DNA from: an uncultured Pseudomonadota bacterium
GTDB lineage: Bacteria; Myxococcota_A; Polyangia; Fen-1088
Direction of reading: 5' to 3'
Length of the DNA: 64,000 bases
NCBI GenBank assembly: GCA_963723305.1
Contig: CAVRRT010000124.1
Coordinates: 2,857 to 66,856, forward strand
A program made the position numbers and the translations under genes. A model generated the notes under the pieces. It made no database searches, was not told where the DNA came from, and was given only the letters and a program-made list of their open reading frames with translations. Shown here piece after piece: positions 6,799 to 21,148 of the stretch. Positions within the stretch are counted from its first letter, which is position 1. Every line of letters begins with the position of its first letter.

Positions 6799-7215
6799 AT
6801 GAGACCCGAGGCGATCTTCGTGCCGGTGAGCGTGCTGGCGATCTGGACGGGATTGATGGTGTTCCTCGTCGGCTTCAGTCGAATCCGGGCCGTGCGGGCG
6901 GGTCGTGTGCCGCGTGGGGCGTTCCGCCTGGGCGAGAGCCCCGAGGTCCCGCCCGACGTGACGATCTGGAACCGGAACCTGATCAACCTGCTCGAGATGC
7001 CGATGCTGTTCTACGTGGTGAGCATCTGCTTTTACGTCACCCACCTGGTGCGTCCGGGCGTGCTGACCTACGCCTGGATCTACGTCGCCCTGCGGATCGC
7101 TCACTCGCTCGTCCATGTCACGTCCAACCGAATAATGGCGCGGCTCGTGCTGTACGCGGCCAGCAACGTCATCCTGCTCTCCCTCTGGGTCAGGTTCTTC
7201 ATCCGCATCGGGTAG
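6799..7215 (+). CDS. MAPEG-family membrane protein
   Basis: 138 aa with about 4 hydrophobic helices. NLLEMPMLFY and RIAHSLVH motifs resemble the MAPEG family. Confidence 0.55.
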   Translation: MRPEAIFVPVSVLAIWTGLMVFLVGFSRIRAVRAGRVPRGAFRLGESPEVPPDVTIWNRNLINLLEMPMLFYVVSICFYVTHLVRPGVLTYAWIYVALRIAHSLVHVTSNRIMARLVLYAASNVILLSLWVRFFIRIG

Positions 7216-7230
7216 AGCGCTGCCGCGACG

Positions 7231-7554
7231 ATGGCCCGCCCTCCCCGCCCACGCCGGCAGCAACGCGAGCAAGCGCGCCTCCTCCGCAAGACAGTCCGGC
7301 AGCTCGAACGCCTCGCCGGCCAGCTCCCCGGCGGCGCGCCGGAGCGGCCGATCGATGTCGCGTCGGCGTCGATCGTCGAGACGAAGGCCCGGGCGCTGCC
7401 CTGCATTCAGTGCGCCGCGACTGAGCTGGAGCTCCGCGACGACCGCGCAACGTCGACGGCGCGGGGCGTGTTGCGGGAGATGGCGATGATTTGCCGTCGC
7501 TGCCACGCGACGCGGGTGGCCTGGTTCCGGGTGGCCGCCGACCCCGTCAACTGA
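7231..7554 (+). CDS. Hypothetical protein with CxxC...CxxC zinc-ribbon-like pair
   Basis: 107-aa track ORF with CIQC and CRRC pairs. Arg-rich N-terminus makes the call tentative. Confidence 0.35.
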   Translation: MARPPRPRRQQREQARLLRKTVRQLERLAGQLPGGAPERPIDVASASIVETKARALPCIQCAATELELRDDRATSTARGVLREMAMICRRCHATRVAWFRVAADPVN

Positions 7555-7646
7555 CCGACAGAGCGCTTCGGCAGGCGAGGCCCCTCTGCTGGCGTACCAG
7601 CCCAGGCCGGCGCCCGGACCGCCTGGACCTCCCCTCTGGACCTCCT

Positions 7647-7752
7647 CTAGACCGCTTTCACGTTGAAGTGATCGCAGCACCCGCCTGTGACGATCGGCCT
7701 GGCGGTGCGCTTCCCGAGCATTGTCGATCACTTCAATCGGGAAGCGGTCTAG
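7647..7752. mobile_element. 106-bp MITE-like element, copy 1 (CTAG ends, ~28-bp imperfect terminal inverted repeats)
   Basis: Left end ctagaccgctttcacgttgaagtgatcg and right end cgatcacttcaatcgggaagcggtctag are inverted repeats. No ORF inside. It is 101/106 identical to the reverse complement of 8159..8264. Confidence 0.65.
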
Positions 7753-8048
7753 CGTCGTCGAACGACATGGTCCCAGGTCATCCGCCAGCTGCCGATCATA
7801 CCGTAGAGCGGATAGTGAAAGACGCCCGGGCGATTGCGTTGGAAATACCAATGCCCGACCCAGGCGAACGCGTTGGCCACGACGGGAGCCAGCACCAGGA
7901 TCCAGCACCGACGCTCGGCGATCGCCAGCGCGATCGCGCCCAAGCCGAGCAGGTTTCCAGCGACATGTAGCCGCCGGTTCACGGGATGGTCGTGCATCCG
8001 GAGGTAGACGGGATAGAAGGCGGAGAAGCTATCGAACCGCTTGGACAT
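7749..8048 (-). CDS. DUF962 (Mpo1-like) small membrane protein
   Basis: 99 aa. FYPVYLRMHDHPVNRRLH and GHWYFQRNRPGVFHYPLYGMIGSWRM are typical of DUF962. By eye the GC is lower than surrounding genes. The stop codon TAG (7749-7751) lies inside the MITE terminal CTAG. Confidence 0.65.
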   Translation of the reverse strand: MSKRFDSFSAFYPVYLRMHDHPVNRRLHVAGNLLGLGAIALAIAERRCWILVLAPVVANAFAWVGHWYFQRNRPGVFHYPLYGMIGSWRMTWDHVVRRR

Positions 8049-8158
8049 CGCCCGGTACCGATAGCTTACCGAATCTTGGGCTCGAACGCGGTCTCGTCGT
8101 GCCGTCGGTCACAGCTCTCGCTCGTGTCGCCAACGCCCTGGAAGTCACCATGCCCGAC

Positions 8159-8264
8159 CTAGACCGCTGCCCGATTGAAGTGATCGACAATGCTCGGGAA
8201 GCGCACCGGCAAGCCGATCGTCACAGGCGGGTGCTGCAATCACTTCAAGGTGAAAGCGGTCTAG
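8159..8264. mobile_element. 106-bp MITE-like element, copy 2 (inverted relative to copy 1)
   Basis: Same termini (ctagaccgc...gcggtctag). 5 mismatches versus the reverse complement of copy 1. Its terminal CTAG (8261-8264) supplies the TAG stop of the MFS gene. Confidence 0.65.
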
Positions 8265-9517
8265 ACTTCACGCTCTTCGTCCAGCCGATCGATCGTGCGC
8301 AGTGATCCGAGCGCGAAGGTGTAGACGGCAACCACGATCAGCGTCCCCACGCCGCCGACGATGACCGCCGGCACCGCGCCCAGCCAGGCCGCGGTCAGGC
8401 CGGACTCCAGCTCCCCGAGATCGTTGGAGCTGGAGATGAACACCATGTTCACCGCGCTGACCCGGCCCCGCATCTCGTGCGGCGTGCGGAGCTGGACCAC
8501 CGTCGACCGGACCACCACGCTCACCATGTCGGAGGCGCCGAGCACGACGAGCGCGGCCAGCGAGAGACCGAAGTGCCGCGACAACCCGAACACAATCGTC
8601 GCCACGCCGAACAGCGCCACGCAGCCCAGCAGGATCGGCCCGGCCCGGCGGGTGAGCGGGCGATACGCCAGGACGACCGCCATGAGCGCCGCGCCCGCCG
8701 CCGGCCCGCTGCGCAGGAGCCCCAGGCCCGAGGGGCCGACGTGGAGGATGTCGCTGGCGAAGATGGGGAGCAGCGCGGTCGCCCCACCCAGCAGGACCGC
8801 GAACAGGTCGAGCGAGATCGACTCGAGGATGACCGGGCGCCGACGCACGAAGCGCAGCCCCTCCGCCACGCGGGCGAGCGCGCCGCTGCTCGCCTGGCGC
8901 CCGGCCTGGAGCGGCGCGTGCCGGCGGATGGAGAACGCCGCCGCGGCAGCCAGCGCCATCAACCCGGCGGCGATGGCATACACCCAGAGCGGTCCCCCGG
9001 CCGCGCCATAGAGCAGGCCCCCCAGCGCCGGTCCGACGATCGTCGACACCTGCCAGGTCGTCGAGGTCCAGGTGACCGCGTTGGCGAGGTGCTCGGGCGG
9101 CACCAGCCCCGGGACGACCGCCTGGGCCGCGGGCGCCAGAAAGGCGCGCGCCACGCCGACGAAGAACAGCACCGCGTAGATCGGCCTCGCGCCGGCGTGC
9201 GCCAGCACCAGCAGACAGAGCGCCAGCACGCAGAGCGCCAGCGCGACGCTGCAGACGCCCACGATTCGGCCGCGATCGAAGCGGTCGGCCACATTGCCGC
9301 CCGGCAGCGTCAGCACCAGCACCGGCGCGAACTGAACCAGGCCGACATACCCCAGCGCCAGCGCCCGATGGGTGAGCGCGTAGATCTGCCAGCCGACCGC
9401 GACGGAGGTCATCTGCGCCGCCAGGTTCAGCGCCAGCGACGAGGCGACGTAGCGGCGGTAATCGCGGTGCGCGAAGGCCGCTCCCGGCGAGACGGCGGCG
9501 GGGCCAGGGGAATCCAT
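8261..9517 (-). CDS. MFS transporter
   Basis: About 12 predicted hydrophobic helices. HRDYRRYVASSLALNLAAQM and DRFDRGRI loops are typical of the MFS family. Start chosen at ATG 9517 (MDSPGP); the track ORF extends to 9586. Confidence 0.75.
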   Translation of the reverse strand: MDSPGPAAVSPGAAFAHRDYRRYVASSLALNLAAQMTSVAVGWQIYALTHRALALGYVGLVQFAPVLVLTLPGGNVADRFDRGRIVGVCSVALALCVLALCLLVLAHAGARPIYAVLFFVGVARAFLAPAAQAVVPGLVPPEHLANAVTWTSTTWQVSTIVGPALGGLLYGAAGGPLWVYAIAAGLMALAAAAAFSIRRHAPLQAGRQASSGALARVAEGLRFVRRRPVILESISLDLFAVLLGGATALLPIFASDILHVGPSGLGLLRSGPAAGAALMAVVLAYRPLTRRAGPILLGCVALFGVATIVFGLSRHFGLSLAALVVLGASDMVSVVVRSTVVQLRTPHEMRGRVSAVNMVFISSSNDLGELESGLTAAWLGAVPAVIVGGVGTLIVVAVYTFALGSLRTIDRLDEEREV

Positions 9518-10569
9518 GGGGCGCGGATGATGACACGGCGCCGCCGGCTCCACCGCCGCGTCATGGGTTTGACCGCCGCCCCACACCGGACGACCGCCCT
9601 CCCGGCGGAACCTGCCACGTTGTTGGCGCGTGTCGCCCTGCCGCTGGTCCTCGGCTGACCGCCCGGGCGGCCGCTCAGAATCGCCGCGCAGCGGTCCAGG
9701 GTGACGCTCTCGGTGTCGCCGTCGATGGTCACGTCGGCGGTTCCGCAGCCGGTGATGCTGACGCTGGCCGATTTGCCGGAGTCCTTGCCGCTCGTGACCG
9801 TGCCGGTGAGCGAGCCCGACGAGGCGCAGTTGCAGCTGGGGGTCCAGGCCAGGTTGTCGGGCGTCAGCGACACCGCGTATTCGGCCAGGTTGTGCGTCAC
9901 CACCAGCGTCCCCGCCACGATGACGAAGTCGGCGCGTGAGCTGCCGGTGATCGTCAGCGGCGTGCTGGTCGCGGTGCTGATGTCGAACAGCCTGCGGCCG
10001 CCGGGCGCGGTGAGCACCCGCTCCATCCCCGGCACCGCGAAGGTGAACCCACCGTCGGTGCGGGTCAGCGTCTGGCCGCCACCCGGCGAGGTCACCGCCA
10101 GCGTCCCGCCGTAGTTGCCCGTCAGGGTGAAGCTGGCCGTGCGGTCGACCGAGTCACCGGTCGCCGAGAGCGAGCAGGCCGCCGCGTCGCTGAAGGTGAG
10201 CGTCACCGAGCCGTCGACCGTCGCCGACCCGAACGAACAGCTGTCGAAGGTCTCCGTCCGAACGCCCGAGGTGCAGGCCGAGTAGGTGAACGGGTAGCAG
10301 TCGGCCGCGTAGGCCGAGGGGATCACCGCGTCGAGCGCGCGCCGCCAGAGCGGCCCCCTGAGCTCGCCGGGCGTGCGCAGGATCGGCAGCGCCGGGAGCA
10401 TCGCCGTGGCCGAGCCGCCGCTGGCCGACTCGTCGGCGCTCGCCATCACCTCGCCCACGGCGGCGCCGATCTGCCCCTGGTCGCTGAGACCCTTCTGGCA
10501 ACCGGTTGCCAGAAGCGCCAGCGCCGCCGCCGTCACAACCCCCGTCCTCGATCCAGCGCGCGTCGACAT
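9427..10569 (-). CDS. Hypothetical lipoprotein
   Basis: ATG at 10569. Signal plus lipobox MSTRAGSRTGVVTAAALALLATGC. Thr/Ser/Gly-rich beta-type body. The last ~80 codons are Arg-rich, look non-coding and overlap the MFS start, so the 3' end is uncertain. Confidence 0.5.
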   Translation of the reverse strand: MSTRAGSRTGVVTAAALALLATGCQKGLSDQGQIGAAVGEVMASADESASGGSATAMLPALPILRTPGELRGPLWRRALDAVIPSAYAADCYPFTYSACTSGVRTETFDSCSFGSATVDGSVTLTFSDAAACSLSATGDSVDRTASFTLTGNYGGTLAVTSPGGGQTLTRTDGGFTFAVPGMERVLTAPGGRRLFDISTATSTPLTITGSSRADFVIVAGTLVVTHNLAEYAVSLTPDNLAWTPSCNCASSGSLTGTVTSGKDSGKSASVSITGCGTADVTIDGDTESVTLDRCAAILSGRPGGQPRTSGRATRANNVAGSAGRAVVRCGAAVKPMTRRWSRRRRVIIRAPWIPLAPPPSRRERPSRTAITAATSPRRWR

Positions 10570-19882: not shown

Positions 19883-21118
19883 GTGATCGGACGCCGATCC
19901 TGGCTGCTGGCGCTCGGCCTCGCGGCCGCCGCCTCTCCCGCCCGCGCGCAGACGACGCCCGCGCCGGACGTCACCGTGAACGGCGGGTCGGCGCAGACAG
20001 CGCCGCCCACGCCCGAGGTCTCGGTGAACGGAGCGAGCATCTCGAGCGGACCGACGTCGCCGACCGACGCCGCGCTCGAGCGTGTGCTGCGCTCCGGCTG
20101 CCGCGACGGCCTCCAAGACCTGCAGGCGCTCCGCGGTAATCCGGACGCGCCGTGGGCCCCGACGGTCGCCCGCCTGTGCGAGGGGATCGTTCGCCGGCCG
20201 CCGATGGTGGTCGCCGAGACCCCGGACCGCGGCGAAGCAAGGTCGGCCAACGAGGGGCGCGGGCGCCTGGTCCTCTGGTCGTCGCTGTACGGGATCTGGC
20301 TGGGAATCGCCTCCGACGTGCTGCTCGATTTCGGCGGTTCACGCGGCGCGATCATTCCACCCATCCTCGGCATGGGCGCCGGGCTCGCCGTCTCGCTCTC
20401 CGTCACCGCCGATCACCCGCTGACGACCGGTCAGGCCTGGACGATCATCACCGGCCTCGATTACGGGTCGTATCACGGCGCGCTCTGGGGAGAGGCCCTC
20501 GGCCTCTCGGACAAAGGGATCGTCGCCGCCTCCCTGGCCAGCAGCGCGGCAGCGACCGTGGTCGGCGCCTTGGTGGCCGCCAGTCAAAGCCCGCGCGCGG
20601 GGGACATCGAGCTGGTTCGTTCGGGCCTTCTGTGGGGGACGGCGAGCGGCCTTCTCGCTTACGGCGCCTTCTCGGCGCACACGGGCAACACCGACCAGGC
20701 GCTCGCCGCCAGCGGCGCGCTGGCGATGGACATCGGGTTCGCCGCCGGCATCGGGCTGGCCCACACCTTCGATCTGTCGCGCAACCGCGTCCTCATCATC
20801 GACGCCGGCGCCGTGGGGGGCGGGTTGGTCGGCTTCGGGATCGCCGAGTTCATCACCAACGAGAACAACCCGAGCGGCCGCACGCTGGCGGCAGGGACCC
20901 TGGGCGGCCTGTTGGCGGGGATCGCCGTGGCGGCGTTCGCCGGTCGGCATCTGGACGACGACGATCGCCAGGCGCGCGCAGCCTCCTTCCCGGCGCTGTT
21001 GGCGCGAGATCCCGACGGGAGCTGGCGCATCGGCGTCCCGGCCACCACGCCGGTCGCGTCCGTCACGGGCGCGCGCCTGATCGGCGCCTCGTGGTCGGCG
21101 CTGGGCGGCGTCTTCTAG
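19883..21118 (+). CDS. Hypothetical secreted/membrane protein
   Basis: GTG 19883 is in frame with track ORF 18797..21118. Signal VIGRRSWLLALGLAAAASPARAQ is followed by several Gly/Ala-rich helices. Confidence 0.5.
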   Translation: MIGRRSWLLALGLAAAASPARAQTTPAPDVTVNGGSAQTAPPTPEVSVNGASISSGPTSPTDAALERVLRSGCRDGLQDLQALRGNPDAPWAPTVARLCEGIVRRPPMVVAETPDRGEARSANEGRGRLVLWSSLYGIWLGIASDVLLDFGGSRGAIIPPILGMGAGLAVSLSVTADHPLTTGQAWTIITGLDYGSYHGALWGEALGLSDKGIVAASLASSAAATVVGALVAASQSPRAGDIELVRSGLLWGTASGLLAYGAFSAHTGNTDQALAASGALAMDIGFAAGIGLAHTFDLSRNRVLIIDAGAVGGGLVGFGIAEFITNENNPSGRTLAAGTLGGLLAGIAVAAFAGRHLDDDDRQARAASFPALLARDPDGSWRIGVPATTPVASVTGARLIGASWSALGGVF

Positions 21119-21148
21119 AGTCTAGGAAACGCGCGGCCGCGCGCTATC

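Follow-up and report, generated by a model that had tools for sequence, protein, structure and literature searches.

What are the two nearly identical palindromes that enclose a small membrane-protein gene in this stretch of an uncultured Polyangia genome (64,000 nucleotides of contig CAVRRT010000124.1, hereafter the window), and did they carry that gene to its present place? The region concerned, positions 7647-8264, is very probably a non-autonomous composite transposon, made of two inverted copies of a MITE (miniature inverted-repeat transposable element) around a functional Mpo1-like/DUF962 gene. An earlier note on this DNA had proposed a mobilizable composite cassette, and the proposal is borne out by the recovery of the same 618-bp unit at a second locus with unrelated flanks. 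The parts of the unit and its surroundings are as follows.

7647-8264, minus strand: composite unit of 618 bp (MITE, 406-bp core, MITE), flanked by C|TA|G on both sides
7647-7752, plus strand: MITE copy 1, 106 bp (nhmmer E 1.4e-33; RNA fold -58.6 kcal/mol, z -7.6)
8159-8264, minus strand: MITE copy 2, 106 bp (nhmmer E 4.1e-33; RNA fold -48.8 kcal/mol, z -4.7)
7749-8048, minus strand: passenger gene, Mpo1-like/DUF962 membrane protein of 99 aa (PF06127, E 2.6e-26)
8049-8089, minus strand: 41-nt leader upstream of the Mpo1-like start codon, homologous to the native Polyangia loci L136-L144
8090-8158, plus strand: remainder of the core, with no homology to the native Mpo1 locus; reads ...LGLERGLVVPSVTALARVANALEVTMPDL
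8261-9586, minus strand: target gene, major facilitator superfamily (MFS) transporter (PF07690, E 5e-33)
7623-7648, plus strand: 13-nt tandem duplication, CTGGACCTCCCCT / CTGGACCTCCTCT, adjoining the outer end of copy 1

Architecture of the 618-bp Unit

The two MITE copies are reverse complements of one another and identical at 101 of 106 positions, as the earlier note had described. A repeat search also reports them as a 107-nt inverted pair at 95%, and a shuffle control agrees, since the 28-nt MITE end (at most 3 mismatches) matches twice in the window vs not once in 100 dinucleotide-preserving shuffles. The inner block of the terminal inverted repeat (TIR), TTGAAGTGATCG, searched with at most one mismatch, has four matches, all within the two copies, vs 0.09 expected in the window. 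Both copies have the termini CTAGACCGC...GCGGTCTAG with CTAG at each end, and their TIRs are imperfect: 28 nt at 86% in copy 1 (24/28 complementary) and 26 nt at 81% in copy 2 (21/26), in keeping with the ~28 bp first described. No open reading frame (ORF) is confined to the element, again as had been noted; it has no Pfam match, and no Rfam family matches across the region that holds the copies. The copies are predicted to form hairpins of -44 to -59 kcal/mol (z -3.4 to -7.6), which is expected because any element with long inverted ends folds in this manner.

Copy 1 turns its well-conserved L-type TIR (7647-7674) outward and its R-type TIR (7725-7752) toward the passenger gene, so overlapping the gene's TAG stop (7749-7751), which lies within the inner CTAG of that copy. 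Copy 2, inverted relative to copy 1, likewise has its L-type TIR (8239-8264) outward, and its outer, terminal CTAG (8261-8264) holds the TAG stop of the MFS gene (8261-8263). The coincidence of CTAG ends with the DUF962 and MFS stops had thus been read correctly, and the length of the unit, given as 619 bp, is in fact 618 bp. Both outer ends of the unit in the window are L-type TIRs and form a 25/26 inverted repeat, an end pair that appears at least as good as that of a single MITE; the MITE pair could therefore be cut and pasted as one element.

The GC content is 0.633 in the 406-bp core, 0.594 in the MITE, and ~0.70-0.75 in the flanks, and GC at third codon positions (GC3) is 0.80 in the Mpo1 gene vs 0.88-0.95 in neighboring genes, which confirms the earlier description of a lower-GC DUF962 gene. 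The 10-bp direct repeat seen beside copy 1 is real, its unit being in fact 13 nt long and present twice (7623-7648). This duplication is found in the same-strain contig L128 and is absent beside the unit in L122 and L120, and we place it outside the mobile element because the flanks of the other copy lack it.

The Unit and Its Passenger at Other Loci

The whole unit recurs at locus B (L122:662-1278 and L123:669-1285), 97.6% identical across window positions 7647-8264. Positions 7647 and 8264 are the exact limits of homology between the window (locus A) and both contigs, beyond which the flanks are unrelated. At locus B, too, CTAG lies outside both unit ends and the L-type TIR faces outward at each of them; the P0121 contig was assigned to the same locus by gene order. 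Locus C (L120/L121) has a CTAG and the same 406-bp core, with a single MITE, which sits at the stop of the gene, and lacks the second MITE; the unit is the sole sequence that loci B and C have in common. An assembly artefact is ruled out, as the unit is found in independent ENA, JGI, Logan, and NCBI assemblies. Taken together, these comparisons strongly support movement of the 618-bp unit, as a whole, between unrelated genome sites, and we consider the composite to have been mobile recently.

The identical 99-aa Mpo1-like protein is encoded at the three loci, on contigs with differing neighbors, and the coding sequences (CDSs) of loci A, B, and C differ from one another by 2-4 nt, all synonymous. 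These synonymous-only differences argue that the passenger is functional, and the gene is under purifying selection.

One allele of locus C, L135, carries the gene with a CGC-TAG stop and without a MITE, reading CTAG-TCATCCTGA-CTAG instead; the 17-nt palindrome CTAGTCAtccTGACTAG (L135:1005-1021) stands in place of the 106-bp MITE of L121. This allele also has a deletion of tens of nucleotides upstream of the gene relative to L120. A hairpin to the left of the core in L120 was considered as a terminator; it is not significant (z -0.74) and was therefore dropped as an argument that locus C is ancestral.

MITE-free orthologues of the passenger gene occur in L134 and in nine contigs, L136-L144, at 90-93% nucleotide identity, and their chromosomal surroundings are conserved. 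In L134 (93%), the orthologue lies downstream of a GtrA-like gene; in L136-L144 (90%, including the Polyangia metagenome-assembled genome [MAG] GCA_035485555.1), it lies between BNR/sortilin-like and PilZ genes. Homology between the window and these native loci covers the CDS plus 41 nt only (8089-7748, ~90%), which suggests that the 41-nt leader and the CDS came together from the native locus on the chromosome. The native stop context is CGT-TAG-A, not CTAG, and the mobile allele (ending ...DHVVRRR) forms a tight group inside a more diverse native family.

The rest of the core has another affinity. The segment upstream of the Mpo1 start (8051-8158, plus strand) matches the helix-turn-helix (HTH) profiles HTH_3 (E 0.042, positions 29-52 of 55) and HTH_31 (E 0.069), both in the C-terminal part of the profile only and below the Pfam cut-off; we tentatively read the ~70 nt beside MITE copy 2, which resemble the last helix region of an XRE-type HTH domain, as what is probably left of the 3' end of such a gene. 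The core thus seems chimeric, an HTH-gene tail joined to the Mpo1 gene. For the passenger gene, no sigma-70-like promoter emerged from a promoter scan.

The MITE Family at Other Sites

Copies of the MITE occur at several unrelated loci. Solo copies are present in a Polyangia MAG, on a TAG stop (L032:3213-3316, 86%), and in a metagenome contig (L126:73-177, 82%); L127:2344-2440 has the same MITE ends around another core, and further copies are those of L120/L121 and L122/L123. CTAG flanks each of them on both sides. The sites are also polymorphic, in that L135 lacks the copy present in L121 and the MFS stop of L129 is free of copies. Copies at unrelated loci together with presence/absence sustain the earlier identification as a MITE, and the 106-bp element appears to represent a genuine MITE family. 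The closest named MFS and Mpo1 homologues, like the L032 record, are labeled Polyangia bacterium.

Nine copies were aligned; across them, the left end CTAGACCGCTTTCAC(G/C)TTGAAGTGAT is near-invariant and the right end retains GCGGTCTAG. Mismatches between L and R repeats are confined to positions 12-16, and because the differences sit only there we describe the TIR as bipartite, with ~11 conserved nt, ~5 variable nt, and 12 conserved nt. An nhmmer profile built from the nine copies found no additional MITE members among 146 collected sequences; a weak match in L001 has neither CTAG ends nor TIRs and was discarded. The solo MITE of L032 lies between convergent genes (L032:1345-5047) whose products end in ...NWWPVLFY and ...NWWVYLFY and may be paralogues, and a second CGGTCTAG stands 9 nt past its right end (GCGGTCTAGcgccgtctaCGGTCTAG).

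Searches by TIR pattern need care. The pattern used to scan the genome collection, GACCGC-N7-TTGAAGTGATYG, was too loose: it returned at least 119 stretches, and among the matches listed L032 was the sole real copy. This pattern encodes D-R-x-x-x-E-V-I, and the MITE TIR itself translates to DRFPIEVI or DRFHVEVI, so that coding sequences of the DRxxxEVI type probably account for many of the loose matches (L001-L119, many phyla). A tighter pattern used on metagenomes returned four stretches, of which L126 and L127 hold real MITEs; the other two, L124 and L125, are coding-sequence coincidences, DRFPIEVI at L124:9850-9872 lying (by eye) inside an acyl-CoA-dehydrogenase-like ORF. Loose TIR patterns are therefore a trap for pattern-based MITE searches.

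CTAG Targets and Stop Codons

Every MITE junction reads C-TA-G, and across seven independent insertions 14/14 of the bases that flank the TA fit CTAG; none of the copies is inserted outside CTAG, and no YTAA-flanked copy was seen. This tetranucleotide is scarce in the window, with 10 occurrences vs 181 expected from base composition (~18-fold depletion) and 59 from a Markov estimate. The MITEs account for four of the 10, one is the aconitase stop, and four end long unannotated ORFs. Three to four of the ~7 independent insertions are on stop codons, namely those of the MFS gene, the Mpo1 gene, and an 859-codon ORF in L032, and the MITE of L126 is probably also on a stop, that of a 148-codon ORF. 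We attribute the frequency of insertion at stops to the depletion of CTAG, because some of the surviving sites are C-preceded TAG stops. The duplicated TA and the terminal G of the element rebuild TAG, and the upstream protein is therefore unaltered.

Relatives preserve the target itself. The MFS gene closes with an intact CTAG and no insertion in L129 (95.6% nucleotide identity, ...GAGGTCTAGATCG), in L130/L131 (the Polyangia MAG GCA_035295645.1), and in L132; the CTAG stop of the MFS gene therefore predates the arrival of the composite. The earlier suggestion that stop codons served as rare CTAG targets gains support from these intact sites, from the L032 copy, and from the depletion of the tetranucleotide.

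The interval between the MFS gene and orf107/MAPEG (window 7550-8260) holds the composite in the window, a 256-aa ORF in L130, a RibD_C-type gene in L133 (2751-3647), and a fragment of such a gene in L145 (5266-5535); it looks like a local hotspot of gene turnover. Elsewhere in the window, positions 21115-21125 read CTAGagtCTAG, two CTAGs 3 nt apart at the convergence of a 1094-codon plus-strand and a 416-codon minus-strand ORF. Both stops lie in CTAG and neither ORF has a Pfam match; these are potential MITE landing sites.

Transposase Family and Alternative Explanations

The earlier note had called the element IS630-style. For IS630, Table 1 of PMC2577343 lists CTAG as the target and a duplication of 2 bp, and an IS630-associated composite transposon inserts at the TA in CTAG (Tenzen et al. 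1990 and Tenzen & Ohtsubo 1991, as cited in PMC2577343 and PMC2170065). IS630-family transposases use two HTH motifs to bind inverted repeats of ~24 bp (PMC2170065), and a bipartite TIR of 26-28 nt would fit binding of this two-HTH type. We therefore lean, somewhat, toward an IS630-type transposase; an IS5-type enzyme is rather unlikely, and other families share what is left.

In the IS5-type account, the composite is the same and would be moved by an IS5-family or IS1182-like transposase with a 4-bp CTAG duplication, the element then being ACCGC...GCGGT. All junctions match CTAG-element-CTAG equally well, and there is a precedent in MITEPsy1, a 100-nt IS5-derived MITE that duplicates 4 nt on entry into CTAG or YTAA (PMC3189936); among the copies collected here, however, none is flanked by YTAA, and the 26-28-nt bipartite TIR is closer to the two-HTH sites of IS630/Tc1 (PMC2170065). 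Near the MITE in L121, moreover, an insertion sequence (IS) with a DUF772/DDE_Tnp_1 transposase sits in CTAG 200 bp away, at a site that is empty in L120, and IS5-like users of CTAG are therefore active in the same genomes; its TIRs (CAGCCCGTGGTGGAAG), on the other side, are unlike those of the MITE, for which reason it was rejected as the parent. IS5-type ends, which the TIR of the MITE resembles less, are roughly 16-18 nt. On balance, this account is possible but doubtful. The IS in question (L121:2833-4327) is ~1.5 kb long, encodes a 458-aa transposase, and has perfect TIRs of at least 19 nt (TAGCAGCCCGTGGTGGAAG); its CTAG is intact in allelic L120 (~7069-7072). It appears to be a second, unrelated CTAG-targeting element active near the MITE.

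Two other explanations dispense with transposition of the unit. Homologous recombination or gene conversion between MITEs already resident at the targets could draw on 106 bp of homology per copy, and a solo MITE on a stop-codon CTAG does exist (L032). The MITEs of the unit are inverted, however, so recombination between them would invert the segment rather than excise it, and each target would have needed two correctly oriented MITEs beforehand, whereas relatives have a bare CTAG without any MITE at the MFS stop; in addition, the outer TIR ends are the precise limits of homology at both loci. We regard this route as highly improbable. It is harder still to credit that the 106-bp palindromes are conserved host regulatory or terminator RNAs of a REP-like, immobile kind. 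Their strong predicted hairpins (-44 to -59 kcal/mol) and their position directly after stop codons would suit such a role, but they have no Rfam match, no U-tract, and no terminator call, they are present or absent at orthologous sites (L129, L135), and they occur in unrelated contexts with CTAG ends throughout, L127 having the same ends with a different core.

Several results weigh against an IS630-type composite transposon as proposed here. No transposase-bearing element with matching TIRs is present in the 64-kb window, on the four metagenome-scan stretches, or among the matches listed in the too-loose scan of the genome collection (at least 119), and no match came from a viral-contig scan, a plasmid BLAST, or a protein search with six-frame MITE peptides. 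The junctions are compatible with a 2-bp TA and a 4-bp CTAG duplication alike; of the IS630-style label, then, the choice of family stands as the likelier one, while no transposase parent was found and the IS5-type duplication fits equally. The family looks low-copy in the collections searched. The sequence CTAG-TCATCCTGA-CTAG in L135 is neither a canonical Tc1/IS630 footprint nor a simple empty site: such a footprint would be TA, 2-3 nt of each element end, and TA, with GAC...GTC in that order, and GAC...GTC in the expected order is absent from L135, so the palindrome may not be an excision footprint at all. Finally, the empty site that the earlier note had suggested looking for in relatives was recovered in part. 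We searched for the window locus through the close MFS homologues P0001, P0002, P0004, P0005, and P0006; the intact CTAG on the MFS side was found, and no relative has a complete empty site with both flanks matching, as only the MFS-side half is conserved, L129 running only 46 nt past the MFS stop and the interval from the MFS gene to orf107 being occupied by different DNA in the remaining relatives.

Comparison with Known Systems

As the cited sources describe them, IS630 and its composite resemble the unit in the CTAG target, in the apparent duplication of the central TA, and in a two-ended composite that moves as a unit; the TIRs of ~24-28 nt would also suit a two-HTH transposase. Unlike IS630, the unit has no transposase gene, is bounded by 106-bp MITEs rather than full ISs, and belongs to a host among the Polyangia (Myxococcota). 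As composites, the closest relatives are the pair of 439-bp MITEs around class 1 integrons and blaPER-1 (PMC3934969), MITE-297 around a 76-kb mer region (as discussed in PMC6382973), and the MITE-bounded composites termed TIME-COMPs (PMC13367494), in all of which two non-autonomous MITEs enclose a passenger and are mobilized in trans. The passengers of those composites are plasmid-borne resistance modules that range from several kb to 76 kb, in clinical Proteobacteria, and the composites derive from other transposase families, whereas the unit described here is 618 bp, carries one housekeeping-type gene, and is chromosomal in environmental Polyangia. As an element, the MITE is like MITEPsy1 of Pseudomonas syringae (PMC3189936) in being ~100 nt long, non-coding, and inserted in CTAG; MITEPsy1 differs in its 18-nt TIRs, its unrelated sequence (GGAAGGTCTGAAAAAGCC), and its demonstrated 4-nt duplication, and it has a putative parent, ISPsy2, and no reported composite (PMC3189936).

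Hairpin MITEs at gene ends are familiar from other bacteria, and stop codons completed by a target site are familiar too. RUP of Streptococcus pneumoniae (107 bp, linked to IS630-Spn1) and the Correia elements of Neisseria are hairpin MITEs of ~100-150 bp with TA duplications, often at gene ends, unrelated in sequence to the MITE described here and resident in AT-richer hosts; we know of no CTAG or stop-codon preference, and of no gene-carrying composites, for either. IS870 of Agrobacterium, an IS630-family element, needs its CTAG target to complete the stop of its own ORF; there, the stop serves the transposase ORF, whereas at the junctions described here a host gene keeps its own. Literature searches yielded nothing relevant on the TIR sequence of the MITE or on myxobacterial MITEs. 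The mobilization of passengers by MITE pairs and the targeting of CTAG by IS630 and IS5-type elements are already established; what is new is the element family, the host group, a very small size combined with one passenger that is not a resistance gene, and the set of natural intermediates.

Proposed Origin and Significance

We propose that a DDE transposase encoded elsewhere in the genome recognizes the bipartite TIR of ~26 nt (CTAGACCGC, 7 variable nt, TTGAAGTGAT) and inserts the element, or the pair, into the palindrome CTAG in a genome of ~69% GC, most probably with duplication of TA in the IS630 manner and alternatively with a 4-bp CTAG duplication of the IS5 type. At a stop codon, the rebuilt TAG would make the insertion near-neutral; the MITE hairpins may also have an effect on transcripts. 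The available alleles suggest an order of events. A chromosomal Mpo1-like gene of Polyangia, with CGT-TAG-A at its stop, would have gained the CGC-TAG context; one MITE would then have entered that stop, the state seen in L120/L121; a second, inverted MITE would have entered a CTAG 406 bp upstream; and the finished unit would have transposed to the MFS stop in the window and to another locus (L122/L123). Unoccupied, locus A would read ...GAAGTCTAGAGGAGG... and locus B ...GGAACCCTAGTAGCAGC...

No new mechanism is revealed. A tiny non-autonomous pair has turned, on this interpretation, an ordinary chromosomal gene into a mobile cassette, and the case is documented with natural intermediates (the gene in its native setting, a one-MITE state, the composite at each of two loci, and a MITE-less allele) in a setting outside clinical antibiotic resistance, where such composites are usually reported. 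It also indicates that extreme depletion of a target tetranucleotide can steer insertions to stops with the upstream protein unharmed, which should help work on how IS630/IS5-type transposases choose their targets. For the annotation of Polyangia and other Myxococcota MAGs, the repeats should not be taken for regulatory RNAs, nor the DUF962 gene for a native resident of the window locus. More speculatively, MITE pairs in high-GC myxobacteria might be a general device for the capture and shuttling of single genes, with stop-codon CTAGs as neutral landing pads. If so, any gene with a CTAG stop and a CTAG upstream could be boxed in and spread within and between genomes, and the 618-bp unit would be among the smallest gene-carrying bacterial transposons, its passenger kept for the benefit of the host.

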